Source: an uncultured Anaerolineales bacterium | Lineage (GTDB): Bacteria > Chloroflexota > Anaerolineae > Anaerolineales > UBA11858 | NCBI GenBank assembly: GCA_964613985.1 | Contig: CAZTJD010000007.1 | Location: forward strand, 15,507 to 79,506 | Reading direction: 5' to 3' | DNA: 64,000 nt | Shown: positions 49,801 through 64,000 of the stretch, one piece after another | How the letters are laid out: each line of letters starts with the position of its first letter | Numbering within the stretch: position 1 is the stretch's first letter | The notes under the pieces: model-generated | Told to the model about the DNA's origin: nothing | Databases searched by the model: none | The model's input: the letters and a program-made list of their open reading frames with translations, nothing else | Position numbers and translations under genes: made by a program

Positions 49801-50501
49801 TTTGGAAAATCACTGGGAAAATTCAAAACAGGTAATTCCCCCGCCAGTTTTTCTTTCCAATAGTTCAATTGTTTCTGCAGTTTCTCTTCTTGCTGACTTA
49901 AGTGATATTGTTCTAAATATTCCGAATATTGAATGCCGATCTCAGGTAGATCGGGGGCTTCATTCTTGACCCTCGCTTGATACATTTTCATAAAATCTTT
50001 AAAAATCACTCCCGCAGACCAACCATCTGAAATAATGTGGTGCATGGGAACTGAAATTATGTATTCAGTTTCAGCAAGTTTTATTAGAACAGTTCGAACC
50101 AAGGGACCTTTATTAAGGTCAAAGGGCTTTCTTGCCTCTTCAGCAGCAAGTTTTAAACCTTCTCTTTCCCTATTTTTTAAATCAATATGGTTCAAATCAT
50201 AAAATGTGAAATCGAGATCATTTTTCGAATGAACAACCTGCTTTGGTTCCCCATTAATGGTTGTTATCGTAGTTCGTAGACTCTCATGCCGCTCAATAAT
50301 ATCCTGGAAACAAATTCTAACAATTTCTGGATCTACGGGGGTATTAATCTTCAAAACTAGATCTGTAATGTGATTCGTGGGAGAATTAGGATTCAGCTGT
50401 TCAAGAAGCCACATTTGCTTCTGAGTATTTGTAAGCTCGAGCAATTTCTCTTCTAACATTTTTGATCCTTCATCTGAGATATTGGATTCGTCTGGTTCCA
50501 T
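37806..50501 (-). CDS. Trimodular NRPS with two embedded sulfotransferase domains: C-A-T-ST-C-A-T-C-A-T-ST-TE (4231 aa; alternative start 50459)
   Basis: Three C domains (HHIISDG, HHIVADA, HHIVSDA). Three A domains (YTSGTTGxPKG, NAYGPTE, YRTGD, NGK). Three T domains (all FFxLGGNSL). Two ST domains (SAPRSGSTLLR, RHPYxMIPS). TE (GWSFG, GAID, GNH). An AAGGA RBS 6 nt before the ATG at 50459 suggests that start. Confidence 0.97.
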   Translation of the reverse strand: MEPDESNISDEGSKMLEEKLLELTNTQKQMWLLEQLNPNSPTNHITDLVLKINTPVDPEIVRICFQDIIERHESLRTTITTINGEPKQVVHSKNDLDFTFYDLNHIDLKNREREGLKLAAEEARKPFDLNKGPLVRTVLIKLAETEYIISVPMHHIISDGWSAGVIFKDFMKMYQARVKNEAPDLPEIGIQYSEYLEQYHLSQQEEKLQKQLNYWKEKLAGELPVLNFPSDFPKSRVQNTDGARVPLIIPQEMLDSLRKVTSEYGVTLFSVLLAAYKGFLYQLTGQDDIIVGIPTAGRKGRKTRNLVGLFINTLALRTRLNDQLTFEELLDYTQSNVWMGLRNQEIPFTKIVEEVNPDRDLARSSLYQTMFVFQNWPMPENEGPEINVSPVMIDPKKSIVDLAISLIESEFGIHGWMEYSTNLFKSETVELFARYYLRFLNEAITDPKAKIAEIPLVSKEELYQQLHNWNQTSSVYPSARGIHELLEEQVKKSPRITAVLDGEKELSFLELNERANQLANYLKKVGVKPGEVVGFCVGRSVDMVVGLLGIMKAGGVFLPMDPTYPKERLALMLEDSGAGILITEEEFVSGLPEYRGKIVVLDREQIEIAQENVENPGVTVSGEDLAYLIYTSGTTGIPKGVTVRHKNLVNHALEMGKRLGIEAGGRMLQYISISFDASLESIFPVLLKGGTVVVVENPAELVGMSLLMKIEDNDINYLHLPVSVWHQTVIEMERQELKVPESLKLVLVGGEQVEVDRLRGWTERLRQPMLFVNAYGPTEASITATTYALNLEPGGEVGKERIPIGKPLGNVRVYVLNERGEPVPIGLPGELYIGGAGVSAGYHNREDENELAFVMDRFEGDGNLYRTGDIVKLLPDGNLVYLGRRDEQVKLRGYRIELGEIEAVLREQKGVEEAVVMLREDMPGVKILVAYLVGEEVDEEELIEKLGERLPGYMVPGAFVRLDEIPLTPNGKINRKGLPAPVMEGWETYVKPRTRLEELLAEMWGDLLGLEEVSVKANFFDLGGNSLLGATFINRLQAKLGEYLYLIALFDAPTIEELGVYLEENYPVGVGRMLGEELDISQGVALMKRMRRGDIEGLKEKVKKLVPRKQEEAPVNTPATFILSAPRSGSTLLRAILGGNPELFAPPELQLMNYNNLKEQAEAFANERDSFWLDGVVMALMNLQGWSEVEAREALKRWAEERMSVRAFYGQMQAWLGERLFVDKTPNYALDPGMLKRIEEDFQEAKYIHLVRHPYGMIPSFEKAKLHVFYPPFLEEDTNLTVREMAEAIWTISQEHIESFLRGIPKERQLRVSYEALVTRPEEVINEICEFLEIEFHDDMLYPQKDPRKRMTGALHELSRMVGDVRFFEHEGISASGAYRWQEGYRGDYLTEITWQIAERLGYWREDLPILEAGRGGFEIQPVSRERNLPLSFAQQRLWFMNQLEPGGSTYNMPGSFRLVGELDIKALQSSLETIIQRHEILRTRFSIVDGNPIQVIDPPFNLEIPLIDLTDLSEEQRSSKAKQIASEEAMTPFDLSTGPLIRVKLIKEAENTHIILLSLHHIVADAWSIGIFVREFASLYGSFLEGREVTLPDLPIQYVDYSVWQREYLQGDVLDSHIRYWQNQLTPLPPVLEIPTATVRPRVQTFKGDQHKIELPAKIAGMAKKLNRKTDTTFFMVLLAAFMVLLQRYSGEEDICVGTPAANRGRTETEGLIGFFVNMLAMRGDLSGDPSFLELLQRIREMSLRSYEHQELPFEMLVDVLQPVRDSSRNPIFDVGFQYQNVEVGELKLKGLRFEEIDSDFSAARLDLMLSMTEGDAGKIKGTLEYNTDLYSSWTIERMGRHYLKLLEEVLENPEAKLSELEIMGEEELFEQLVQWNETRVIYPSQQGVISLIEAQVDRTPDLVAVKLEGEELSYRGLNEQANQLAHYLVEKGVRANKVVGLCVKRSLEMIVGMLGIMKAGGVFLPLDPRYPSDRILFMMNDTNAGYLLTQESNFGAVEKYEGEKIVLDREDAEFREYDRSNLQVELDEEDLAYIVYTSGTTGSPKGVMVRQRNLKNNIFGINNIYQIQEGDRMLQFTTITFDPSFEEILPILMSGGTIVMHKDPTELVGTSLLEFIEKEQINYIHMVASVFHQSVMEMDRLDVKVPDCLKFVHVGAEPLELDRLLSWSNRVEKPVRFINAYGPTENTCTATLYEMISSPEAELPKSRIPIGKPIPNVRIYLLDKNKKPVPIGLPGEIYIGGESVTAGYLHQPEQTNGSFLPDPFNEKENAFMYRTGDIARFLPDGNLLFLGRADDQVKLRGYRIELREIENALRTHPQVHDAVVLLREDVPGVKQLVAYLVGDEEGVSKEIFHQYLADRLPVYMIPGVYVWLEELPLTQNGKIDRERLPVPDIQTGEIFVPAQTPLEIHLTAMWAELLGVEEISVQANFFELGGNSLLGATFINRLKGQLGENVKMVTIFEKPTIYSLSLYLEEKHPLGVRRLLGETIKGDDEEALKIKSVSREGYLPLSFAQWRLWYMHRLEPSGYIYNVPNFFRLAGELDLEAFQKGLNIVIERHEVLRTRFPIVDGNAVQVIEPPFKLDIPIVDLSEMPENDREEEANRLTTEEVYKPFDLENGPLIRVRLIKVGDQDHIVLITLHHIVSDAWSLGILIREFSVAYEAHLYGKSVDLPELPIQYVDYAVWQRSNLKGDVLESQMRYWRNQLTPLPPALELPTARVRPRVQTFKGERQVITLPASDVSMAKSFNKETNTTLFMIFLAGYLALLHRYTGETDISVGTPVANRGRMETEGLIGFFVNMLVMRGDLSGDPTFRELLERVREMALDAFNYQELPFEMIVEDLHPAQDSSRNPLFQIGFQFQNADVGELQLPGLVLKGLHPDFGVARLDLMLSLTEAPGDLIQGVFRYNTDLFDRETIERLDLHYRQLLSGLLSNPDRPISHIPLLTETARDELVNVRNETNEPYPEYQGIHELWEEQVRKTPQAIALRVNSDELTYAALNERANQLAHTLIRKGVRKNIVVGLFLDRSLEMMIGLLGILKAGGVYLPMDPGYPIKRLEFMIEDAGVRFMVTREDLLKDIPGFDGTAICLDRDIEEIRWNSPHNPEKGSFGDDLVYIIYTSGTTGIPKGVQVRHRNLVNHAWWMRRRLGMEVGERILGYFSISFDGAVDWIYPALLNGGTIVIAKTPAELVGARLLDFIEEEKINYLHLPASVFHHTANEMERLERKVPESLKLILLGGEQVNLMSFHIWSERLNKPMRFLNAYGPTETTVTATMFEEVCYPGKNYVYPRVPIGRPVPNVRIYVLDERGEPVPDGLPGELYIGGAGVTAGYLNRDGENEVVFVTNRFSGEGKLYRTGDMVRYLGDGNLIYLGRRDEQVKLRGYRIELGEIEAVLREEDGVKEAVVILREDIPGVKVLVAYLVGDEGIEEDLNERLGKRLPAYMVPGAYVWMEKIPLTPNGKIDRRGLPIPELSRGERYIGPRTRLEEVLTELWGELLGQDEVSVKANFFDLGGNSLLGATLINRLQEELGEYLYLVALFDAPTIEKLSAYLEQNYPTGVRRLLGEEVDVEQGTTVIRRINDDDFDGLRRMVKKLAPRDEEEKAPINDPAVFILSAPRSGSTLLRVMLGGNPKLFAPPELQLMNYNTLKEQEEAFSNERDSFWLDGVVVALMNLRGWSEAEARKALGRWAEEGMSVRAFYGKMQSWLGDRLFVDKTPNYALDPSMLQRMEENFRDVKYIHLIRHPYAMIPSFEKAKLHVFYPPFLKGETHLTVKEMAEAIWTISQEHIEGFLKEIPEERQLRVSYEGLVTKPEEVIGQVCEFLEIEIHEDMLKPQDDPEKRMTGALHELSQMIGDIRFFEHEGISASGAYRWQEAYRGDCLAEKTWQIAERLGYLREDLPDKVETSNHFLTVEQTQPLVAIQPKGSKPPLFLGHAGGGIIFPYYNLVPYMHDQPIYGLQDPSVYSDELTYSTLEEMAEDYVRWIQKVQPKGPYRLAGWSFGGTLVFEIAHNLIRKGEKIAFLGAIDTWLKPPDLFTVRKEDIAQRKIEKVIASWKQIITRVFKILKGTVSVSKSIIPHLRNGFYFMLSRKLSSEDKKRKLSQVANRILGIAMTTEFLQGSDFAELAHQEKHLLELNIPSSMGRVLQLVRIHQKYANNYKPQPLPSKIHVIYGDWKRKDIENTGVVATLGWEEYSTVGVEIVWTTGNHSSLFTKPDVEALAKKINQLLDESSTE
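38826..39674 (-). other. NRPS sulfotransferase domain ST2 (between T3 and TE)
   Basis: FILSAPRSGSTLLR 5'-PSB loop, APPEL, VDKTP, RHPYAMIPS 3'-PB motif. Confidence 0.93.
46293..47141 (-). other. NRPS sulfotransferase domain ST1 (between T1 and C2)
   Basis: Same motifs as ST2. Gapless hand alignment with ST2 gives 233/283 identical residues (~82%). Confidence 0.93.
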
Positions 50502-50592
50502 AATTTATACATTTTTTCGTGTTTACAAGGTTTCCTGATCTTAGCCGCGTTAAGTTCACCATAAGGACTCAATAAGGTCTGACTGGTTTGCG

Positions 50593-50601
50593 ATTATATC
50601 A
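50593..50601 (-). promoter_or_regulatory. Extended -10 promoter candidate for the NRPS
   Basis: TGATATAAT (TGn-TATAAT) on the minus strand, about 90 nt upstream of the NRPS ORF. Confidence 0.5.
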
Positions 50602-50873
50602 AAATTTACTAAGACATAGCATTAGTGCATCAATTAACAATCGCCATCCCTTTTCCCCCTGATACAGATAGGAAATTTTACAATTTGAACTCATTGAGAA
50701 ACAAAGTATCCGTTCTTGTTCAATGATTTCCGGGATTCGATAGAAAATATCTATGTTAAATACATACACTCAAAAAATTATGAGTGCCTTCCCTAGTCTA
50801 CCAGAAAAAGGATATCAGTCAATGTTATATGCGGTTAATAATCGCTGGAAATCTGAATTGATTTAATTGTAAT

Positions 50874-51710
50874 TTATACTCGATGTCGAGGATAAGAACC
50901 CAGCACACGTAAGTAAGTAGCCAGTTCAGCCAAATGTTCCAACGCCTTAGTAGATATTTTCGCGGTTTGATGTCCAACAAAATCGATATAAAATAAATAT
51001 TCCCATGGCTTTCCTGGTATCGGTCGAGATTCGATTTTGGTCAGATCGATCTCTCTTAATGCAAATACACTCAAGGCTTTGAATAATGTACCTGGTTGAT
51101 TCATCAGACTGAAGACAATAGATGTTTTGTAATCTCCATCTTCAGGGTCATCCACTTTTAAAGGAAATTGAGATAAAACCAGGAAACGGGTAATATTAGA
51201 GGTATCATCTTCGAAATTTTCTACCAATATATCAAGATTATAAACCTGCGCTGCTCGTTTGGACGCTATGGCTGCTTTTCGTTTGTCACCCCAATCCCTC
51301 ACGTCTCGGGCACTTCCCGCAGTATCAGCAGCGGCTATTTTCTCTATTCCGAGTCGACTCAGATGATGTTCACATTGAGCGAGAGCTTGGGGATGAGAAA
51401 AAACCTGGCATATATCAGCCAATTTTGAACCAGTGATTCCTAGTAAACAATGCTGCACTCTTAGAAAATATTCCCCCACAATATACTGCTCATAACGCAA
51501 AATCAAATCATAATTACGGTGGATACTTCCAGCCAGAGAGTTTTCGAAAGGCAATATACCATAAGCAGCGGTTTCTCTTCCCACTTCTTCAAAGACACTT
51601 TCAAATAGACGACAGGGAATTGTCTTGATCTTTGATCCAAAATAATTTAAAGCCGCCAATTCACTATAGGCACCAGGCTCACCTTGAAAAGCAACTCGAA
51701 TCGTTTCCAT
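50874..51710 (-). CDS. pheA: Prephenate dehydratase (PDT + ACT)
   Basis: FQGEPGAYSE, PFENSLAGS, SHPQALAQC, NITRF, LTKIESRP, FYIDF. Confidence 0.95.
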   Translation of the reverse strand: METIRVAFQGEPGAYSELAALNYFGSKIKTIPCRLFESVFEEVGRETAAYGILPFENSLAGSIHRNYDLILRYEQYIVGEYFLRVQHCLLGITGSKLADICQVFSHPQALAQCEHHLSRLGIEKIAAADTAGSARDVRDWGDKRKAAIASKRAAQVYNLDILVENFEDDTSNITRFLVLSQFPLKVDDPEDGDYKTSIVFSLMNQPGTLFKALSVFALREIDLTKIESRPIPGKPWEYLFYIDFVGHQTAKISTKALEHLAELATYLRVLGSYPRHRV

Positions 51711-51791
51711 TTCTTTTTTTTCTCAATATTATCAATCAGGATGGGAAAATGACAATCCACTTCCTAAATTAATTTGCATTCCCTCGTTTTT

Positions 51792-52700
51792 CTATACGTA
51801 ATCCAACCAAGCTTTAGCAAAGTGACCTTTGCCATGCACGGTTGTAAAAAACGCCTCTTGGATTTTCCGTGTGGTCGGTCCCATTTTCCCGTTTCCAATA
51901 CGACGTGTGTCAATTTCGGTTACTGCCGTTACTTCAGCAGCTGTTCCACACACAAAGACTTCTTCGGCAATGTAAAGCTGATCTCGTGTAATAAGTTCTT
52001 CGATTACTACATACCCTTCATCTCTCGCCAAGATTATGACTGAACCTCGGGTGATGCCTTCTAAAATTGAAGCGCGTGGTGGTGTGAAAATTTTGTCGTC
52101 CTGAACTATAAAAATATTCATCCCGCTGCACTCCGCTACGTAACCTTCCGGATCGAGCATGATTGCATCATCATAGCCATAACGATGTGCTAGAGTGCTG
52201 GCTAGAATAGAGTTGATATAGTTGCCGCCTGCCTTTGACTTGGTCATAATAACATTCGGGTGGAGCCTCGTGAATGAGGAAACGATCATCCGCACCCCAT
52301 TCTCAAGTCCTTCTTCGCCCAGGTAAGCACCCCATTCCCAAACAGCGATCCCTACACGTGAATGGTAATTGTCAAGATTCAGGTTTAGAGGGCCTTCCAT
52401 GTATAGTACAGGGCGAATATAACAATTGGTAACTTCATTAGCCAGAATGGTTTCATGAACAGCATCACGTAATTCAGCAATCGAGTATGGGAAATCTTGA
52501 ATCCCGATGATCACAGCAGAGTTTACAAATCTTTCAAGGTGTTCTTCCAATCGAAAAACTGCTGGTCCATCAGGGGTTTCATAACAGCGAATCCCCTCGA
52601 AAACCCCAACCCCATAATGTAGAGTTGGCGATAGAAGATGTACTCTTGCATCATCAAATGGTACTAATTTGCCATCCATCCAGATAAATTTCGACTTCAT
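51792..52700 (-). CDS. ilvE: Branched-chain amino acid aminotransferase
   Basis: LHYGVGVFEGIR, YIRP, KAGGNY, ECSGMNIF, LEGITR, GTAAEV. Confidence 0.96.
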   Translation of the reverse strand: MKSKFIWMDGKLVPFDDARVHLLSPTLHYGVGVFEGIRCYETPDGPAVFRLEEHLERFVNSAVIIGIQDFPYSIAELRDAVHETILANEVTNCYIRPVLYMEGPLNLNLDNYHSRVGIAVWEWGAYLGEEGLENGVRMIVSSFTRLHPNVIMTKSKAGGNYINSILASTLAHRYGYDDAIMLDPEGYVAECSGMNIFIVQDDKIFTPPRASILEGITRGSVIILARDEGYVVIEELITRDQLYIAEEVFVCGTAAEVTAVTEIDTRRIGNGKMGPTTRKIQEAFFTTVHGKGHFAKAWLDYV

Positions 52701-52798
52701 TCATTTCTCCTCAATAGACACAAAAGATACAAAGGATTACTCGATAAATATTGCCACCAAATTCTAGCATATTTTTCTAAGGTTTTTTCCTAAAATCT

Positions 52799-53884
52799 CT
52801 ACGCATCAATCTCCAACAACGCCCCTATAATTCTCCTAGTCATTTCCTCTGTATTAATTATCACATCACCCTCCGTAGCAATATCGCGGGTTCGATAACC
52901 TTCAACCAAGACTTGGTTAACCGCTTCCTCAATAATACTACCCTCTTCCTCCAAACCCAGTGAATAGCGTAACAGCATTGCCGCAGAAAGAATCGCTCCA
53001 ATCGGATTCGCAATTCCCAACCCGGCAATATCAGGCGCTGAACCATGGATGGGTTCATATAGACCCAGCCCGTCATTCCTCAGAGATGCAGAAGGGAGGT
53101 TTCCCATCGATCCGGTTAAGACCGAGGCTTCATCCGTCAGGATATCGCCGAACAAATTCGCTGTTAACACCACGTCGAAAGAAGTCGGCCTTTGCAACAA
53201 AAACATCGCTGCAGCATCCACCAAGATATGTTCGGTTTCTATATCAGGGTAATCCGCAGCAACCTTTGTCACTGTCTGCCGCCACAAACGCGAACACTCC
53301 AGGACATTAGCTTTGTCTATGGAGGTTACTTTTCCTCGTCGTTTTTGGGCAAGACGAAATGCGAGATGGGCAACCCTTTTGATTTCCCCTTCGGTGTAGC
53401 ACATCGTGTCTACTGCTTTCATTTCCCCCCCATCTAATTTTCGAATTCGTGGTTCTCCAAAATAAATTCCACTGGTAAGCTCGCGCACCACCATCATATC
53501 GACACCTACCAGGCGCTCATAACGCAGCGGTGATGACCCAAGTAATTCAATGTGTGGTTTTATTGGACGCAGGTTGGCAAAAACATTTAAACCTTTTCTC
53601 AACCCTAACAGTCCCTGTTCAGGACGGACCATCGCTGTCGGATTCTCCCATTTAGGCCCACCTACGGCTCCCAGTAAAATTGCATCTGCCGATGTGCAGG
53701 CATACAGGGCTTCATCTGTCAGCGGAATTCCATGCTTATCAATAGAGCAACCGCCAATGAGATGCGTTTCAAATGAAAACTGGTGTACAAATCGTTCAGC
53801 GACCGAATCAAGCACATCTTTTGCTGCTTTTACGACTTCAGGTCCAATACCATCTCCTGGGAATAATATAACTTTAAATTTCAT
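52799..53884 (-). CDS. leuB: 3-isopropylmalate dehydrogenase
   Basis: PGDGIGPEV, LLGAVGGP, NLRP, RELTSG.YFG, DKANVL, NLFGDILTDE, EPIHGSAPDIAG. Confidence 0.97.
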   Translation of the reverse strand: MKFKVILFPGDGIGPEVVKAAKDVLDSVAERFVHQFSFETHLIGGCSIDKHGIPLTDEALYACTSADAILLGAVGGPKWENPTAMVRPEQGLLGLRKGLNVFANLRPIKPHIELLGSSPLRYERLVGVDMMVVRELTSGIYFGEPRIRKLDGGEMKAVDTMCYTEGEIKRVAHLAFRLAQKRRGKVTSIDKANVLECSRLWRQTVTKVAADYPDIETEHILVDAAAMFLLQRPTSFDVVLTANLFGDILTDEASVLTGSMGNLPSASLRNDGLGLYEPIHGSAPDIAGLGIANPIGAILSAAMLLRYSLGLEEEGSIIEEAVNQVLVEGYRTRDIATEGDVIINTEEMTRRIIGALLEIDA

Positions 53885-55443
53885 ACAAACGCCAATCCAT
53901 ATTCAATACTGTCGACCAAAGCAAGCCAGCTTGCTTCGATAATGTTTGGACTGGCACCGACCGTACTCCAGCGTTTATGATGGTTTTGCGTATCAATGAG
54001 GACGCGGGTTGTCGCAGCAGTTCCGCTATCACTATCCAGGATCCTCACTTTATAATCTGCAAGTTGAAAATCTGCTAACCTGGGGTACACCGGCAGTAAC
54101 GCCTTTCGCATTGCCGCATCCAGTGCGTTGACCGGCCCGTTACCCTCCGCCACCGTATGGATTGTCTCTCCTTGTGCAATTATTTTTACTGTAGCCTCGG
54201 CAAAAACGCCTCGACCTCGGCGGTTTTCAACGGTAGAAGAATAATCAATCAAATCAAATGGGGATTGGTAGCCTTTTTTCTGGCGATGAAGCATCAAAGC
54301 TACTGATGCTTCTGCCGCTTCAAAAGAAAAACCACGGGCTTCTAACGCCTTGATCTTTTCTAAAACATTGGTCACAGTAGTCTTATTTTCAATGTCCAAA
54401 CGTAGCTCGTCTGCTTTTGAAAACAAGTTGCCGCTGCCAGAAAGCTCCGATACCACCGTTCTCATTTGGTTGCCAACCAAAGCTGGATCAATATGCTGGT
54501 AGCTGTTCCTATTCCTGCGCATGGCTGCTACATGGATTCCCCCCTTATGGGCAAACGCGCTGTGCCCCACAAAAGGCATATGATCATCTGGAGCCAGGTT
54601 GGCAACTTCTGCCACAAAATGAGATAGGTCATAGAGGTCTGGTAAATTTCCTTCTGGCAGACACCGGCAGCCCATCTTTAATTCCAAATCAGGGATAGCA
54701 CTGCACAAATTAGCATTCCCACACCGCTCCCCATAACCATTGATAGTACCCTGGACATGAACAGCACCCTCATGGACAGCAGCAAGTGTGTTTGCGATGC
54801 TGCAATCACCATCATTGTGAGTATGGATTCCTACCATTGCCTCGGAGAATCTATCCACAACAGCCTTAGTTGCCTTGGCAACTTCCCAGGGCAAAGCACC
54901 CCCATTTGTGTCACATAGTACAATGCAATCTGCACCCGATTTCAATGCTGTGCCTATCGTGTCAAGAGCATAGGATGGATCTGCCTTATAACCATCGAAG
55001 AAATGTTCCGCATCGTAAATCACTTCTCGACCCCTTGACTTGGTATAGGCGACACTGTCTGCAACAATACGTAAGTTCTCCTGCGGGCTGGTATTTAAGA
55101 CTTCCTTTACATGCAAATCCCAGGTCTTACCCACCACTGTACAGACAGGTGTACCCGAATTAACCATTGCCTGAATATTTTCATCATCTTCTGGCGTACT
55201 GCCTACCCGGCAGGTAGCACCAAATGCAGCGATCTTTGCATTTTCTAAACACAATTCATGCGTCCTTTCAAAGAAAGCGACATCTTTTGGATTTGATCCC
55301 GGCCAACCTCCTTCAATATACGCTACCCCAAGATTGTCTAAACGCCGGGCAATCCGCAACTTATCGTCACAGGAAAGTGAAATTCCTTCTCGCTGTGTGC
55401 CATCTCTCAATGTCGTGTCGTAGATAAATATCCTTCTTCTCAT
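53881..55443 (-). CDS. cimA: Citramalate synthase
   Basis: DTTLRDGTQ, EGGWPGSNPKD, YDAEHFFDG, HTHND, AHKGG.H, C-terminal GFSFE.AEAS and DYKVRI of the bacterial CimA type. Confidence 0.9.
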   Translation of the reverse strand: MRRRIFIYDTTLRDGTQREGISLSCDDKLRIARRLDNLGVAYIEGGWPGSNPKDVAFFERTHELCLENAKIAAFGATCRVGSTPEDDENIQAMVNSGTPVCTVVGKTWDLHVKEVLNTSPQENLRIVADSVAYTKSRGREVIYDAEHFFDGYKADPSYALDTIGTALKSGADCIVLCDTNGGALPWEVAKATKAVVDRFSEAMVGIHTHNDGDCSIANTLAAVHEGAVHVQGTINGYGERCGNANLCSAIPDLELKMGCRCLPEGNLPDLYDLSHFVAEVANLAPDDHMPFVGHSAFAHKGGIHVAAMRRNRNSYQHIDPALVGNQMRTVVSELSGSGNLFSKADELRLDIENKTTVTNVLEKIKALEARGFSFEAAEASVALMLHRQKKGYQSPFDLIDYSSTVENRRGRGVFAEATVKIIAQGETIHTVAEGNGPVNALDAAMRKALLPVYPRLADFQLADYKVRILDSDSGTAATTRVLIDTQNHHKRWSTVGASPNIIEASWLALVDSIEYGLAFV

Positions 55444-55472
55444 ACACTACTCCGTTTCCAACCATCTTCTGT

Positions 55473-55513
55473 AAAAAAAATGATGCCGAAAACCAGGTTG
55501 CGAACTTCGGCAT
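55473..55513 (-). terminator. Intra-operon terminator-like hairpin between leuD and cimA
   Basis: Minus strand reads ATGCCGAA..15 nt..TTCGGCAT then CATTTTTTTT. Confidence 0.65.
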
Positions 55514-55535
55514 TCCCTGAGTTCTCAACATGGAT

Positions 55536-56135
55536 TTATTCAATAAAAATGGGATGCATTGCCTCGTAAGCCTCAATTTTTTCCTCGAATGAACGAATAT
55601 AACCCAGTTGGTCTACGCCATTTAGCAGGCACGTACGAGCAAAGGGATCGATCGTGAACCTGGTCGCAATACCATCAGGCATCTCAATAACCTGCTCTTG
55701 GAGGTCGATGGTTACTTCAAGTTGAGGTGCCTCATCTGCCAGATCAAACAATGACCTGTGGAATTTTTTATCCACAACAACCGGCAGAAGACCATTTTTT
55801 AGCGCATTATTTCTAAAAATATCAGCGAAGGATGTAGAAATGATAGCCCGGAATCCCCATCCAAGCAGAGCCCAGGGTGCATGTTCACGAGAAGAACCAC
55901 ATCCAAAGTTATCTCCGGTAAGCAAGATCTCAGCAGTTTGGAATTCCGCCTGGTTTAGGACAAAGGTAGGATCAGGGTTTCCATCTACACCATACCGCCA
56001 ATCATAGAACAGACCCTCTGCCAGTCCGATCTTATCTGTGACCTTCAGGAATCGAGCTGGGATGATCTGGTCTGTATCCACATTCCGTTGGGGCATTGGG
56101 ATAAGTCTTGATTTCAAAAAGACAAAGGGTTCCAT
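55536..56135 (-). CDS. leuD: 3-isopropylmalate dehydratase small subunit
   Basis: NVDTDQIIPARFL, NFGCGSSREHAPW, SFADIF.NN. Confidence 0.97.
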   Translation of the reverse strand: MEPFVFLKSRLIPMPQRNVDTDQIIPARFLKVTDKIGLAEGLFYDWRYGVDGNPDPTFVLNQAEFQTAEILLTGDNFGCGSSREHAPWALLGWGFRAIISTSFADIFRNNALKNGLLPVVVDKKFHRSLFDLADEAPQLEVTIDLQEQVIEMPDGIATRFTIDPFARTCLLNGVDQLGYIRSFEEKIEAYEAMHPIFIE

Positions 56136-56151
56136 TAGTTAAACTGCCACC

Positions 56152-57555
56152 TCACCTGATAAATATTCTTGGATCCGTTATCCTGCCAGTGACCGCCGCT
56201 GCCGCCGCACTGAGGGGGCTTGCTAGAAATGTTCGCCCTCCTTTGCCCTGACGGCCCTCGAAGTTACGGTTGCTGGTGCTAATCGCATATTGTCCGGGCA
56301 TTAGCTGATCCCCATTCATTGCGATACACATACTGCAGCCAGCAAACCGCCATTCTCCACCTGCTTTCCGAACGATTTGGTCGATTCCCTCCGCCTCGGC
56401 CTGGGCTCGGACGACCTCAGATCCAGGTACTACGATCAAACGCACCCCTTCGGCAATCCTTCTATTTTTCAAAATTGAAGCTGCCATCCTCAAATCAGAA
56501 ATCCTCCCGTTCGTACAGCTCCCAATAAAAACTACATCGACTGTCTGCCCTGCCAGGGATTCTCCTGGTTCCAGTCCCATATAGGATAATGCCTTCTGCA
56601 GGGATTCCCGGCCTTGGCTGGTTGGTTCATCTTCAGGCTTTGGAACCAGCCCTGTTATCGGAATACCCATCCCCGGATTGGTCCCGAAGGTGATCATTGG
56701 ATCAAGGTTGGAGATATCAATTGAGACGTCTTTTTCGTAAGCTGCCCTCGGATCAGTTGGTAAATTTCTCCATGTTTCGAGCGCTCTTTCCCATAATTCC
56801 CCTTTAGGGGAGTGAGGTTTATTTTTAAGATAAGAAAAGGTGACCTCATCTGGCGCAATCAATCCTGCCCGGGCACCAGCCTCAATAGTCATATTGCATA
56901 GAGTCATCCTGGCTTCCATATCCAGGTTGCGCACTGCAGCGCCTGTAAATTCAATGACATAACCGGTCCCACCACCAATTCCGATTTCAGAGATCAAGGC
57001 CAGGATCATGTCTTTGGCAGTTGCCCCAGATGGCGGTACACCTCGAAATTCAACCCGGCAGGTTTTCGGTTTGTCCTGGAGCAAACATTGGGTAGCTAGA
57101 ACATGTTCGACCTCGCTCGTACCAATACCAAAAGCAAGGGCTCCAAATGCGCCGTGAGTGGATGTATGGCTGTCTCCGCAAACGATGGTCATTCCTGGCT
57201 GCGTGAATCCCTGCTCTGGACCTACCACATGAACGATTCCTCGTTTATCACTCGAAAGATCAAAGAGTTTAATTCCGAAATCCCGGCAATTACCCTCAAA
57301 ATGCTGAATTTGTCTTGCAGACATTTCGTCGACAAGGTCGAGTGATAAGCCAATCGTGGGAGTGGAGTGGTCCATGGTCGCAATCGTCCGATCAGGTCTT
57401 TTTACCCACAAGCCTTTCTCTCGTAGTCCATTAAACGCCTGGGGAGACGTTACCTCGTGGACCAGGTGCAGATCTATGTATATTACTGCAGGAGACTCTG
57501 CCTCCTGCAGTACGACATGGTTCTCCCATATCTTCTCAAAGAGTGTTTTTGGCAT
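56152..57555 (-). CDS. leuC: 3-isopropylmalate dehydratase large subunit
   Basis: [45 protein letters not shown]. Start at ATG 57555 with AAGGA RBS. Confidence 0.97.
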
Positions 57556-57578
57556 AGAAATCTGTAGAGATATCCTTG

Positions 57579-57800
57579 CTAGTCGTCGACACTCCAGTTT
57601 TTCGGATATGTTCGTGGTTTCGGGAATTTTTCCGGATGCCACTCAATATTATTGGCATCCTCATGTTGAAGAACTTCCTCCCCGTCGCCGGAACAATGCC
57701 TGTTTGTCGACACCAGTGCTGAACCATCCCAGGAATTTGGGAAGGTTCTTGGTTTAGGGAAATCCTCAGGTCTCCATTCAGATTGTTTTTTCTTATCCAT
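57579..57800 (-). CDS. Small hypothetical protein with a duplicated 17-aa W/P-rich motif
   Basis: 73 aa, GAGGAG RBS 7 nt before the ATG. Repeats [17 protein letters not shown] and [17 protein letters not shown] are 12/17 identical, with many synonymous codon differences. Confidence 0.8.
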
Positions 57801-57887
57801 CTTATTCTCCTCTTCAAATCATACCGGTCAATAAAATCAAAACCTTTAAATTCTTTTTCCAAGCCTGCTTTACCGTGCCATCTAAGT

Positions 57888-59540
57888 TTATAGCGTTATT
57901 GGGATCTCTGTTGTCTTCTTCGCTTTTCCATAACGCCTGCTGGCAGCCAACAGTTTATTAAGAGCTGCCAAGTATGCTTTTGCTGCTGCTACGATAATGT
58001 CCGTATCTGTGCTATGTCCGCCAAATGTCCGTCTGTGCGTTTGCCCATCCTGTGGCGAGGTGCGATGCGGTACAGCCCCATTCTCAGCTTGCAATCTCAC
58101 TGTTACTTCACCCAAAGCATCAATCCCCTCCGTGATCGCTCTGATTGAAAACTCCAGTAGGGTATTGCGCACCTGAACGATCTCATCAATAGCCTTATAC
58201 GCTGCGTCCACTGGACCAGTACCAATTGCTGCCTGAACTTTTAATTCGCCATCCGGTCCTATCAGTCGAACAGTAGCCGTTGGCATTCCAATAGTCCCGC
58301 AAGCGACCTGAAGCCCATCCATGCTAAAAATTTCCTGTGGTTGGTATATCTCATCTGAAACCAATGCTTCTAGGTCTGCGTCTGTGATTGCCTTCTTTTT
58401 ATCCGCCAGGTCCTTAAACCGGGAAAATGTCTGATCAAGTTCTTCCTCGTTTAGGTCAAATCCCAACTCATCCAATCGTACCCGTAAAGCATGTCGACCC
58501 GAATGTTTTCCCAATACCAGTGTGGATTTTTGCAATCCCACGGTTTCGGGCTGCATGATCTCGTATGTTGCCTGGTTCTTAAGTAAACCATCCTGGTGGA
58601 TACCCGCTTCATGGGCAAATGCATTAGCACCTACAATTGCTTTATTAGGTTGCACGGAAATCCCGGTATAATTCGACACCATTCGACTCACCCGGGCAAT
58701 CTGTGTGGTGTCGATCCCTGTCTCCAAACCGAGGACAGCCCGTCGGGTATGTAAAATCATCGCAACTTCCTCTAAGGAGGTGTTACCAGCCCGTTCACCA
58801 ATACCATTGATGGTCACTTCAGCCTGTCGTGCTCCAGCTCGAATGCCTGCCAGAGTATTTGCGGTTGCCAGTCCAAGGTCATCGTGACAATGTACAGCTA
58901 GGACGACCTTCTCAATGCCTGGAGTGTTTTCTACGATTCCGGCAATTAACGCCCCGAATTCGCTTGGTGTTGTGTATCCGACCGTATCAGGAATATTAAT
59001 CGTCGTTGCTCCGGACTTGATCGCTTCCCCGATAACCAGGTATAGGAACTCTGGATCGCTACGGCCTGCGTCCTCAGGAGAGAATTGGACATCCTCACAG
59101 TATTTTTTCGTGTAAGCCACCATTTCTTGAGTTCGTTCTACAACTTCTTCCGGATCCATCTTTAGCTTATAACGCATATGAATAGGTGAAGTAGCCAGGA
59201 ATGTGTGTATCCGTGGACGGGAAGCATATTGGACAGCTTCCCAAGCAGCATCGATATCCGATTTCGTTGCCCGTGCCAAACCACAAATGATGGGTACTGA
59301 TCGGGAAATGATAGATACACCTGGGCTTGGATTACCAACATCCACTGCAATCCGTCTGACAGCCTCAAGATCATCAGGAGAGGCAGCAGGGAAACCAGCC
59401 TCAATCACATCTACTCCCAGTCGCGCTAGAGAATGGGCGATCTCCACCTTCTCCACAGACGTCAGCGTAGCCCCTGGCGATTGTTCTCCATCCCGCAGAG
59501 TAGTGTCGAAAATAGCGACATAATTAGGGTGCATATTCAT
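57888..59540 (-). CDS. leuA: 2-isopropylmalate synthase
   Basis: [52 protein letters not shown]-terminal regulatory domain. Confidence 0.96.
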
Positions 59541-59562
59541 AGTAAATAATAAAATCCACTGA

Positions 59563-60621
<1,059 letters not shown>

Positions 60622-60627
60622 CTAGGT

Positions 60628-61161
60628 TCAAACACGCACTTTCTCTTCTTTATGTCCGTTGGTCCCTGGCGTGTAGCGGATACCATCCCTGGTCCCCCGC
60701 ATCATTGCGACCTGTCCGGTTCTCACCATTTCTAAAATCCCTATGGGGCGCAATAACTCGACCAATCCCTCAATTTTGTCCTCTGTCCCTGCAATTTCTA
60801 CAATCACGGATTTCTTGGCAACATCAACTATTTTTGCCCGGAATATATCGGTCAGGCTGGCGACCTCCGCTCGCTTTTCGGGGGGACATTTAACCTTGAT
60901 TAATGCCAGGTCTCGAGCAATTGCGGGTTGGTTGGTAACGTCCTGTACATCAATCACATTGACCAGCTTGTACAGATTTGCTTCTACCTGTCTGGCATCT
61001 ACTTGGTTATCGGTCACGATGGTCATTCGCGAAATCTCCGGGTGTTCAGTTTGTCCTACACTCAATGATTCAATGTTAAAGTTACGCCGCCGAAACAATG
61101 AAGCAACCCGGTTGAGTACACCAGGTTTATTTTCAACGAGAGCGATCATTGTATGTTGCAT
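60628..61161 (-). CDS. ilvN: Acetolactate synthase small (regulatory) subunit
   Basis: ENKPGVLNRVASLFRRRNFNIESL, SRMTI, RDLALIKV, EMVRTG. Confidence 0.96.
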   Translation of the reverse strand: MQHTMIALVENKPGVLNRVASLFRRRNFNIESLSVGQTEHPEISRMTIVTDNQVDARQVEANLYKLVNVIDVQDVTNQPAIARDLALIKVKCPPEKRAEVASLTDIFRAKIVDVAKKSVIVEIAGTEDKIEGLVELLRPIGILEMVRTGQVAMMRGTRDGIRYTPGTNGHKEEKVRV

Positions 61162-61233
61162 GTTATCCTCCTTGAGGGGGGGTAATTCGCTTCACTAAGC
61201 TATACTGTTGACAACTTGTAAGCTCTTTATCCA

Positions 61234-62949
61234 TCAATCACCTACCATTGTTGGTTTTACAGGTCTGCGGATCATATCGTCCAAATCTGCTCCAGTAGCG
61301 ACCATCGGGTAAACAGATTCCTCTTTTTCAACACGGAAATCAAGCAGCACTGGACCATTTGTATGTTGTGCGAACGCAATTGCAGGGTAGACATCTTCTG
61401 TTTTTTCTACTCGACGAGATGGGATTCCGTGGGCTTCGCCAATCTTGACGAAATCCGGTCCTTTAATCGACGTAGCTGCGTAGCGCTTATCGAAGAAAAA
61501 CTCCTGCCATTGCCTCACCATACCCAGGAATTGGTTGTTCATGATCGAAATTTTAATGTTCGCGTTTTCTTGTCGGGCGGTAGCCAATTCAGCTTGGGTC
61601 ATCTGGAAACTCCCATCACCATCAATTAACCAGATATCTCGTTCTTTATAGGCGAACCAGGCGCCAATCGCTCCGGGTAAACCAAATCCCATCGTTCCCG
61701 CACCACCAGAAGTGATTAGGCGAAACGGGTGCTCAAATCGATAATATTGCGCCGTCCACATCTGGTGTTGGCCTACACCGGTTACCACAACTGCATCCCC
61801 ATCGGTTGCATTCCAGATGTCATGGATGATATGAGAGGTATGAAGTTTGCCATCATCAGGCCATGTAAGGATGTTTCGAGCTTCTGTTTCATGCTTCCAC
61901 TGCTGGATTTGATCCAACCAAATATCATGATCATATTCATCGACCATTGGAATTAAATCCCTCAGTACAGTCTTCAAATCCCCCATCAAGGCAACATCAA
62001 CACGCACATTCTTATGGACCTCCGATGGGTCAATTTCAATCTGGATCTTTTGTGACCGCGTCGCATATGTGCGCAAATTCCCAGTCACTCGATCGTCAAA
62101 CCGCATACCAAAAGCCAATAATAAATCCGCATTTTGAATAGCATTGTTTGCATAAGCTTCTCCATGCATCCCCATCATATCCAGGCTCAGTGGATGGGAT
62201 GTAGGCATTGCACCCAAACCAAGCAAGGTCATTGCGACTGGAGTTTTGGTTTTCACTGCGAAGGTACGCAGTTCCTCTACTGCACCAGACATAAACACAC
62301 CGTGCCCGGCAAGGATGACAGGACGTTCTGCCTGTTCAATGAGTTCGACAGCGTTTTCAAGCATCTTCCTCGGCGCACGAGTTTGTGGTCGGTAGCCCGG
62401 CAGGGAGAGGTTTTCAGGATATTCATATGTTGTGGTTGCAATTTGAGCATCCTTGCAGATATCAATCAGGACAGGACCAGGACGCCCGCTTCTGGCGATA
62501 TGGAATGCTTCCCTAACAACTGTGGCGATCTCATTTGCCTGAGTTACCAGGAAATTGTGCTTCGTAATCGGTAAAGTGATCCCCGTTACATCAACTTCCT
62601 GGAAAGCATCGCCACCAACCAGGTTCGAAGCAACTTGACCTGTAATACAAACAATTGGCGAGGAATCCAACATGGCTGTTGCAATCCCAGTTACCAGATT
62701 GGTTGCCCCTGGCCCTGAGGTTGCCAATGCCACTCCCACCTTTCCAGACGCCCGTGCATACCCGTCCGCAGCGTGAGCAGCTCCCTGTTCGTGTCGAGTG
62801 AGTACATGGTGAACAGGATATTCCAGCATCACATCATGCACTGGCATAATCGCACCACCTGGATATCCAAAAACTACTTCCACCCCTTCCCGTAACAAAC
62901 ATTCCCATAAAATTTCAGCACCCGTTTTCTTCACATATAACTCCTTCAT
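61234..62949 (-). CDS. ilvB: Acetolactate synthase large subunit
   Basis: FGYPGGAIMP, RHEQGA, TSGPGATN, GQHQMW, GDGSFQM...NN TPP motif. Confidence 0.97.
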   Translation of the reverse strand: MKELYVKKTGAEILWECLLREGVEVVFGYPGGAIMPVHDVMLEYPVHHVLTRHEQGAAHAADGYARASGKVGVALATSGPGATNLVTGIATAMLDSSPIVCITGQVASNLVGGDAFQEVDVTGITLPITKHNFLVTQANEIATVVREAFHIARSGRPGPVLIDICKDAQIATTTYEYPENLSLPGYRPQTRAPRKMLENAVELIEQAERPVILAGHGVFMSGAVEELRTFAVKTKTPVAMTLLGLGAMPTSHPLSLDMMGMHGEAYANNAIQNADLLLAFGMRFDDRVTGNLRTYATRSQKIQIEIDPSEVHKNVRVDVALMGDLKTVLRDLIPMVDEYDHDIWLDQIQQWKHETEARNILTWPDDGKLHTSHIIHDIWNATDGDAVVVTGVGQHQMWTAQYYRFEHPFRLITSGGAGTMGFGLPGAIGAWFAYKERDIWLIDGDGSFQMTQAELATARQENANIKISIMNNQFLGMVRQWQEFFFDKRYAATSIKGPDFVKIGEAHGIPSRRVEKTEDVYPAIAFAQHTNGPVLLDFRVEKEESVYPMVATGADLDDMIRRPVKPTMVGD

Positions 62950-62997
62950 CCAAACAAACCATTAATCAAGAGGCATTGGACCTCACTCTAATTTGAT

Positions 62998-63999
62998 TCA
63001 AATCAAAACAGCGCCTTGATTCGCGCTGGAGACCATCCTGGCATAACGCCTCAACCAAGGACTCTGGCTCTTTATCTCATGAACGGGTAGTTCTGCCAAC
63101 CTGCGCTGGATTTCGGTATCATCCATTTGCACATCAATTGAAGAAGCGTCCAGGTCAATCATGATTAAATCTCCCTCTCTTAGCGCAGCTATCGGACCCC
63201 GAGCTGCAGCCTCTGGGCTGATGTGCCCGACACACAACCCTCTTGTTCCCCCCGAAAACCGCCCATCGGTGATTAAAGCAACTTTATCAACAAGATCCAT
63301 CCCCATCAACGCTGAAGTTGGCGAGAGCATTTCTTGCATTCCCGGCCCCCCTCGTGGGCCTTCACAACGTGTCACAATCACATCACCAGCTTGTATTTCT
63401 TGATTGATGATAGCCTTCATGGTGCTTTCCTGATTCTCGAAAATACGCGCTGGCCCGACATGACGTCTCATTGCAGGGTGAACCCCGGCCGTTTTCACAA
63501 CACCCCCGTCAGGAGCCAGGTTCCCAAATAATATAGATAAACCACCCGTGTTTGAATGCGGTTGGTCGAACGGTCGGATTACTTCATAATCTCGGATGGT
63601 CATTCCCTTTATCGTCTCACGAAGGGAAGCGCCGCTTACCGTTACCCGATCCATATGCAGCACACTGGAGATCTCATTGAGAATTGCCGGCACACCGCCA
63701 GCTCGATGAACATCCTCCATGTGCCACTCCCCAGAAGGGCTGACCTTGGTCAAATGAGGCACTTTCTTAGCAATTTCATTTATTCGCTGCAGGTGATATA
63801 CAATCCCTGCTTCATGAGCAAAAGCCAAAGTGTGCAGTATGGTATTCGTGCTTCCACCCATCGCCATGTCCAGGGCAAAAGCATCATCAATTGCCTCAAT
63901 GGTCACAATCCTTCTAGGAGTTAAGTCTTTGAAAACCAAATCCATGATTTTTGTAGCTGCTTTTACAGCCATCACCTCTCGCTCGTCGCTGAGGGCTAA
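62998..63999 (-). CDS. ilvD: Dihydroxy-acid dehydratase (5' part outside window)
   Basis: MGGSTNT.LH, GNLAP.G.V.K, EGP.GGPGM.EML, TDGRFSG, GH.SPEAA. Confidence 0.96.
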   Translation of the reverse strand, partial: LALSDEREVMAVKAATKIMDLVFKDLTPRRIVTIEAIDDAFALDMAMGGSTNTILHTLAFAHEAGIVYHLQRINEIAKKVPHLTKVSPSGEWHMEDVHRAGGVPAILNEISSVLHMDRVTVSGASLRETIKGMTIRDYEVIRPFDQPHSNTGGLSILFGNLAPDGGVVKTAGVHPAMRRHVGPARIFENQESTMKAIINQEIQAGDVIVTRCEGPRGGPGMQEMLSPTSALMGMDLVDKVALITDGRFSGGTRGLCVGHISPEAAARGPIAALREGDLIMIDLDASSIDVQMDDTEIQRRLAELPVHEIKSQSPWLRRYARMVSSANQGAVLI

Positions 64000-64000
64000 G

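Follow-up and report, generated by a model that had tools for sequence, protein, structure and literature searches.

The small ORF and its place in the leucine operon

The small open reading frame (ORF) reported here lies on the minus strand of the window, by which we mean the whole stretch of 64,000 nt that was analyzed. It is embedded in an operon of 11 genes for branched-chain amino acid biosynthesis, the order of which, as given by Pfam scans of the neighbors, is ilvD-ilvB-ilvN-ilvC-leuA-[small ORF]-leuC-leuD-cimA-like-leuB-ilvE. The features relevant to the small ORF are:

57888..59540, minus strand: leuA, 2-isopropylmalate synthase, 87 nt upstream of the small ORF.
57807..57812, minus strand: Shine-Dalgarno (SD) sequence GAGGAG, 6 nt 5' of the small-ORF ATG at 57800.
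57579..57800, minus strand: the small ORF, 73 codons followed by the stop TAG (57581-57579); belongs to a new family of small proteins.
57714..57782, minus strand: motif unit 1, residues 7-29, including the repeat 57729-57779.
57645..57713, minus strand: spacer between the motif units, residues 30-52; variable, acidic and predicted to be disordered (pLDDT ~51).
57582..57647, minus strand: motif unit 2, residues 52-73 at the extreme C-terminus, including the repeat 57594-57644.
57556..57578, minus strand: gap of 23 nt between the small ORF and the leuC ATG; without an SD and too short for a terminator or attenuator.
56152..57555, minus strand: leuC, large subunit of isopropylmalate isomerase (Aconitase family), directly 3' of the small ORF.
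55536..56135, minus strand: leuD, small subunit of the isomerase (Aconitase_C).
53881..55443, minus strand: cimA-like gene for a second LeuA-type synthase, in the same operon downstream of leuD.

The location of the ORF between leuA and leuC, co-oriented with both and preceded by a strong GAGGAG ribosome-binding site (RBS; 57812..57807), is as described in an earlier note made from the bare sequence. That note had also called attention to two repeats of 17 residues (57729-57779 and 57594-57644), and these are confirmed: they share 12/17 residues and 34/51 nucleotides, whereas no pair of 17-mers from 20,000 shuffled versions of the window protein shares more than 9/17. Of the 12 identical residues, seven are specified by different codons in the two copies (GAA/GAG, CCT/CCG, GAG/GAA, CCT/CCG, AGA/CGA, ACC/ACA and CCA/CCG), which upholds the synonymous differences noted previously. 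The second unit is near-invariant within the clade of 73-aa proteins.

No paralogs of the small ORF were found in the window's own genome. Two other metagenome contigs, Ga0307444_1017721 (L132) and Ga0315534_1044890 (L133), encode a LeuA and a small protein 100% identical to those of the window, and the LeuC of the former contig is likewise 100% identical at the protein level: these contigs thus come from the same organism or a very close relative.

A family of small proteins with a Trp/Pro motif

A homolog search, as the earlier note had proposed, was productive. Word-indexed searches recovered 36 close homologs, nearly all of them 73 aa in length and 47-74% identical, in which a C-terminal segment ending in [YF]PKNWSIDD is almost invariant while the spacer varies freely. 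When 1.84 billion representatives were searched with a profile, the family grew to 190 clusters (50% identity, E<=1e-3). Nearly all members are 49-123 aa long and none is fused to a larger domain; a single 257-aa profile match is a low-complexity repeat. A hidden Markov model of the repeat unit detects 377 copies in 203 proteins, with the following distribution: two copies in 164 proteins, one in 34 and three in five. The unit spans 23 residues with the consensus [ED]WxPE[KP]FP[EKQ]PRT[FIYM]PxGWD[LVI]SxL, and its most conserved positions across the 377 units are F (95%), T (93%), P (97%) and W (97%). In the two-copy proteins the second unit constitutes the end of the protein (120 of the 164 stop 4-7 residues past the last Trp). 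The 34 one-copy proteins, on the other hand, have their unit near the N-terminus and continue beyond it for 23-83 residues as an acidic or Ser-rich tail.

Codon alignments of two clades show a pN of 0.10 and 0.04 in the motifs as against 0.41 and 0.24 elsewhere, with synonymous sites being saturated (pS 0.70-0.94 overall and 0.74-0.94 within the motifs); the selection on the peptide that the earlier note had read from the codon differences is thereby borne out. An AGGAG-type SD is found 5' of the small-ORF homolog in 21 of 24 loci. The notion that the leuA-leuC spacer contains an ORF by chance, or else an untranslated remnant, draws on the fact that many relatives do without it. It is nevertheless refuted by the 190 clusters, the low motif pN (0.04-0.10) against saturated pS, the conserved SD, and the conservation of both length and frame across a bacterial class, and we consider it practically dismissed. 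Judged by these patterns of sequence conservation, the small ORF is a real gene under strong selection at the peptide level and belongs to a family that has yet to be given a name.

The spacer between the units is fast-evolving, acidic and variable across homologs. AlphaFold2 models based on the family alignment feature no secondary structure, with pLDDT values of 70-87 in the motifs and ~51 in the spacer. These models suggest that the small protein is probably intrinsically disordered, and they agree with the acidic, probably disordered spacer anticipated in the earlier note. That note had known of no annotated family for the protein; likewise, there is no family match in Pfam or NCBIfam at E<=10, no match in PHROGs at E<=1 and, using the family profile, no PDB chain at E<=10. 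The annotation of the homologs never goes beyond 'hypothetical protein', and a full-text search of the literature returned nothing on the motif strings, nor on a small protein in combination with isopropylmalate isomerase and Chloroflexi.

In certain genomes of one family of the order (f4; loci L071, L072, L075 and L077) the slot upstream of leuC is occupied by highly divergent ORFs of 87-100 aa (…DYHRMRLYPRHWDMSS…AFDEWQISRHYPDDDTYRCDTFAAF). Of the motif these retain the YPxxWDMS core alone, and their C-terminal half is conserved but different. They may represent a derived sub-family.

Genomic association with leuC

Contextual analysis of the gene neighborhoods gave a uniform picture: the order leuA-small ORF-leuC is observed in 24/24 genome loci, 6/6 contigs encoding close homologs and 19/19 metagenome loci, i.e. 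in 49/49 of the loci fetched. The 24 genome loci are from species-representative genomes, which comprise metagenome-assembled genomes (MAGs) labeled Anaerolineales, Anaerolineae or 'Chloroflexota' and include Leptolinea, Anaerolinea sp. and a Thermoflexales MAG. Across all 49 loci the neighbors are always ilv/leu genes and the small ORF always adjoins leuC; it was never found at any other position of the 11-gene operon. The small ORF is followed by leuC after a median of 37 nt (-20 to 148 nt), and it follows leuA after a median of 94 nt (4 to 1740 nt). Wherever a foreign gene accompanies the small ORF in this slot, namely pckA or a gene for a PIN-domain protein, it is always on the leuA side. 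The small ORF is thus tied more tightly to leuC than to leuA: it is a gene whose peptide sequence is conserved and which is genetically locked to leuC.

The pckA gene (PEPCK_ATP, E=1.7e-215) lies between leuA and the small ORF at L003:4330-5937 (plus strand) and is also present in L004, L073 and L077. Its insertion, which some of the f4 genomes share with L003 and L004, is seen in two separate lineages, and the small ORF is still directly upstream of leuC. The PIN-domain gene is found in L023, on the leuA side.

Among ~100 loci and genomes there is just one stray copy (L095:4208-4387, minus strand, corresponding to ~86.7 kb on contig C7 of genome G646). It encodes a single-motif protein of 59 aa and is located 190 kb from leuC, in a genome where leuA and leuC abut each other, and it is divergent from a gene for a 1083-aa regulator with an AAA_16-TPR-BTAD architecture.

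The neighborhoods also bear on the possibility, raised in the earlier note, that the gene encodes a multi-core precursor of a ribosomally synthesized and post-translationally modified peptide (RiPP), with the two repeats serving as modification cores. That the peptide is small, contains repeats and has conserved Trp, Lys and Pro is suggestive of this, and Trp cross-linked RiPPs exist. Against it, no radical-SAM enzyme, cyclodehydratase, protease or exporter is adjacent to the small ORF in the 49 fetched loci, where it is always embedded among genes of primary metabolism; the proteins have neither a leader/core layout nor conserved Cys/Ser/Thr-rich cores; and the small ORF is absent where leuC is absent, with 48 of the 49 ORF-bearing genomes of the order possessing LeuC. 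The RiPP proposal accordingly did not survive, and we regard it as very improbable.

Translation signals and the leuA-leuC spacer

The use of SD sequences in these operons is gene-specific and conserved (window 51792-62949; loci L003-L026). An AGGAG-type SD almost always precedes ilvN, ilvC, cimA, ilvE and the small ORF, and is mostly missing from leuA, leuC, leuD and ilvB, with an A/C-rich sequence preceding leuC. Specifically, 20 of 23 loci have no SD in front of leuC; given that leuA and ilvB lack it likewise, the SD-less start of leuC is not special and is no specific sign of translational coupling.

No Rfam family matches anywhere in the region 50000-64000 of the window, and no terminator or attenuator was found in its leuA-leuC region (RNA-structure z = -1.77). 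The spacer between the small ORF and leuC measures 11, 23, 129 and 135 nt in the four closest relatives and its content is not conserved, the longer spacers having unrelated strong palindromes or no structure. Long near-perfect hairpins of up to ~23 bp are present in this spacer in the following loci: L005:6175-6324, L007:6187-6334, L009:6187-6336, L010:6160-6308 and L020:6166-6286. Their z-scores are -2.6 in L020 and -4.1 to -6.5 in the remaining four, and those of L007 and L009 have GCGAAGC-type loops. They differ in sequence from locus to locus and look like palindromic insertions of the REP or MITE type.

An attenuation leader of the LeuL/IlvL type was considered for the small ORF and rejected: codons for Leu, Ile or Val do not occur in runs (of the 73 residues of the window protein, 2 are Leu, 3 are Val and 1 is Ile, with none in tandem), there is no terminator and no Rfam element, and the spacer is merely 23 nt long.

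A different action in cis would be that of an arrest peptide: the nascent Trp/Pro motif would pause translation from within the exit tunnel and thereby set the translation of the SD-less leuC, perhaps sensing Leu, Ile or an intermediate. Several features are compatible with such a mechanism. With 120 of the 164 two-motif members ending 4-7 residues past the last Trp, the second motif would be wholly in the tunnel at the stop codon; leuC mostly has no SD of its own and follows at a short distance (23 nt in the window); and arrest peptides, too, show selection for their peptide rather than their nucleotide sequence. Other features speak against it. The distance to leuC is not conserved even in the four closest relatives, the content of the longer spacers is unrelated, and no terminator, attenuator or Rfam match is available to couple a pause to the downstream gene. 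The N-terminal motif is as well conserved as the C-terminal one, and the single-motif members have their motif near the N-terminus, with 23-83 unconserved residues after it. Moreover, Leu, Ile and Val codons are not enriched and the lack of an SD is shared with leuA and ilvB. On balance, we deem an arrest peptide improbable.

Phyletic distribution and gene loss

For an order-level survey, the same 301 genomes were searched for LeuC (E<=1e-80) and for the small ORF. LeuC was found in 157 and the small ORF in 49, of which 48 possess LeuC (Fisher p=1.7e-14). Among these 48, 43 matches share the strand of leuC and lie at most 160 nt upstream of it, marginal E-values included, and it is this position that validates the marginal matches; as for the remainder, two are within 800 nt of leuC, two are unplaced and one is the stray copy of G646, at 190 kb. 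In the window's own family the small ORF is present in 15 of 16 LeuC-bearing genomes, and a credible copy in 0 of 16 genomes without LeuC. Outside the order it occurs in only one further family of the same class. A phylum-wide sample beyond the order had nothing credible, its single weak match (E=0.005) having an internal stop. The family is hence restricted to the class Anaerolineae.

The survey also revealed that LeuC is missing from 144 of the 301 genomes of the order, including 16 of the 32 in the window's family, most of which are >90% complete. This suggests a widespread loss of leucine biosynthesis, i.e. auxotrophy.

Sixty LeuC-bearing genomes without a match were inspected. In most of these leuA ends 30-100 nt before leuC, indicating that the small ORF is truly absent; some f4 genomes have instead the very divergent versions keeping only ...YPxxWD[LM]S.... 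Many LeuC-bearing families of the order are without the small ORF, with leuA abutting leuC, and its role is therefore not needed for the pathway. In two genera of a further family (f2), ORF-bearing and ORF-less species interleave, with LeuA up to 94% identical across the two states: this points to repeated, recent loss without visible compensation. The small ORF is thus dispensable, as close relatives have lost it. In alignments of LeuA, LeuC and LeuD from the two f2 genera no column segregates with the presence of the small ORF, and there is hence no sign of co-adaptation of a partner surface. The presence of cimA shows no correlation with that of the small ORF either, as ORF-less operons carry cimA too.

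Two other occupants of the leuA-leuC slot were encountered. In the family f84 (L035-L038; e.g. L037:194-892, plus strand) the small ORF is replaced by a gene for a 232-aa SAM-dependent methyltransferase (Methyltransf_25/12/11). This enzyme may be a Tam/Tmt1-like methyltransferase acting on isopropylmalate or on by-products of the aconitate type. In L055 and L063, which are without the small ORF, the short leuA-leuC spacer is filled by tandem heptamer repeats (AAAATCG-like, ~8 copies).

The pattern of loss bears on an alternative in which the disordered protein acts in trans on a target outside the leucine enzymes, with the operon position reflecting nothing other than co-regulation. Under this alternative the small protein could be a signal of branched-chain amino acid starvation to some other machinery, for instance a protease or adaptor, a TPR-type regulator, a transporter or the ribosome. 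The frequent loss of the gene, the absence of co-adaptation in LeuA, LeuC and LeuD between close genomes with and without it, and the stray copy next to the 1083-aa AAA_16-TPR-BTAD regulator can all be counted in its favor, as can the fact that Trp-acidic motifs are typical ligands of repeat-domain proteins. Co-regulation alone, however, fails to explain why the small ORF remains no farther than 150 nt from leuC, with insertions of other genes falling on the leuA side, or why it is absent from the other positions of the 11-gene operon; and the stray copy is the sole one among ~100 loci and genomes. We consider a target outside the leucine branch unlikely, though it calls for serious consideration.

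A candidate trans-acting factor of the leucine branch

The reading that we favor, with a probability of roughly 0.4, is that of a disordered and dispensable small protein that acts in trans on the leucine branch, with LeuCD as its most likely target. The small protein would be made from the ilv-leu message by means of its own strong RBS, just before LeuC and LeuD. Each 23-residue Trp/Pro motif would then dock as a short linear motif on a folded partner, which is most likely the isopropylmalate isomerase LeuCD and less likely LeuA or CimA. The effect on this partner may be the tuning of the activity of the isomerase step, of the assembly of the heterodimer or of its Fe-S cluster, or of its stability, with the small protein behaving as an accessory modulator rather than as an obligatory subunit. 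While the peptide-level conservation and the linkage to leuC are direct observations, the trans action of the protein, its partner and what it does to that partner are what we infer from them. An exclusive role in cis is disfavored because the spacer to leuC varies (11-135 nt in the closest relatives) and holds unrelated hairpins or nothing, and because the tails of the single-motif proteins extend for 23-83 residues.

The earlier note had proposed a bivalent short-linear-motif protein that might bind or scaffold LeuA/LeuCD. The part of this that concerns a short-motif protein tied to these enzymes fits the strict synteny and the predicted disorder; bivalency, on the other hand, is not essential, since 34 of the 203 members carry one motif.

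The arrangement at L027:4001-6391, where the small ORF, leuC and leuD are in one frame, allowed a read-through fusion to be modeled with AlphaFold2, with the stops read as Gly and the rows of the read-through alignment well registered. The resulting small protein-LeuC-LeuD model is poor, with a mean pLDDT of 60.5 and values below 50 in parts of LeuC. In this poor model the small protein has a pLDDT of 26-42, which is below its value when modeled alone, and there is no docking signal.

A more specific form of the favored reading can be put forward, tentatively and as rather doubtful in its particulars: a disordered adaptor encoded 5' of leuCD would dock onto the Fe-S isomerase LeuCD through its Trp/Pro motif(s) and control how it is assembled, how stable its cluster is or how 2-isopropylmalate and citramalate are passed on from the two synthases. 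With this, the leucine/citramalate branch would have its first dedicated modulator at the protein level. In a bolder variant the same peptide, while still inside the ribosome, would be an arrest peptide that senses a branched-chain amino acid or an intermediate and gates the translation of leuCD.

Implications

Leucine biosynthesis is treated as fully known, with LeuA, LeuCD and LeuB as its enzymes and feedback inhibition and attenuation as its means of control. A selected, unannotated gene locked 5' of leuC across a class points to an additional, lineage-specific control of, or assistance to, the isomerase step. That the family has a function is strongly supported, and its context hints at a helper or regulator of the leucine pathway. 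As no homolog has been named beyond 'hypothetical protein', the family also illustrates how short disordered proteins escape annotation. The question is experimentally accessible in more than one way: the 23-aa motif is short enough for direct testing as a synthetic peptide; closely related species with and without the gene provide natural knock-outs; and single-motif versions are available from another family of the order, in genomes that consist of 1 contig and are apparently complete.

Comparison with known systems

Several known systems of small proteins or peptides associated with biosynthetic enzymes invite comparison. The first of these is LysW, the small acidic amino-group carrier of the alpha-aminoadipate pathway of lysine biosynthesis, which is encoded among homologs of the leucine enzymes and has a conserved Trp-containing acidic C-terminus. 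The small protein resembles it in being acidic, in being encoded among leucine-type enzymes and in its conserved Trp. It was rejected as a LysW homolog: there is no zinc-ribbon CxxC (the window protein has one Cys, and none is conserved) and no Pfam or NCBIfam match. Further, no ATP-grasp ligase of the LysX type is encoded in the window operon or in the fetched loci.

The MbtH-like proteins (PF03621) are similar in size (~70 aa), in their conserved Trp and Pro and in a PxGW element, and they are accessory partners of a large biosynthetic enzyme from the same cluster, as is proposed for the small protein. Their fold is a β-sheet with a helix, whereas the AlphaFold2 models of the small protein have no secondary structure; and their signature is SxWP-x5-PxGW ... 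WTDxRP, whereas the distance from W..P to PxGW in the small protein is 8 residues and not 5. Membership in this family was thus rejected on the following counts: no Pfam match at E<=10, the different spacing, the lack of a fold, and neighbors that are ilv/leu genes and not adenylation domains of non-ribosomal peptide synthetases.

A likeness to the arrest peptides TnaC, the fungal arginine attenuator peptide and SpeFL lies in the short conserved ORF just upstream of a gene of amino acid metabolism, in the conserved Trp, Asp or Pro near the stop codon and in the selection at the peptide level. TnaC responds to Trp and the fungal arginine attenuator peptide to Arg. These peptides are 24-34 aa long with a single sensor region and a fixed geometry to the downstream signal. 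The small protein, unlike them, has 50-120 aa, usually two motifs and a variable distance to leuC, with a spacer of -20 to 148 nt that shows neither a fixed geometry nor an RNA structure coupling it to the downstream gene.

Another parallel is AcnSP of Synechocystis sp. PCC 6803, a 44-aa regulator of the aconitase AcnB which, at equimolar amounts, lowers both the Km and the Vmax of the enzyme and the loss of which has a conditional, not a lethal, phenotype (PMC7336809). AcnSP is a partial duplicate of the N-terminus of AcnB and is plasmid-encoded (PMC7336809). An equivalent origin of the small protein from the N-terminus of LeuC was suggested by weak PRTLFEKIW look-alikes and was rejected, as hhalign gives a probability of 1.3% for the motif versus the LeuC N-terminus profile. 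The small protein differs from AcnSP in being disordered and repeated and in being encoded directly upstream of leuC. The two are alike in that a small protein is tied to an enzyme of the aconitase superfamily, to which LeuCD belongs, and the dispensable tuning role of AcnSP is, by analogy, of the kind that the small protein may have. What is new here is therefore the sequence family; its general kind, a small accessory or regulatory protein within a biosynthetic operon, is known.
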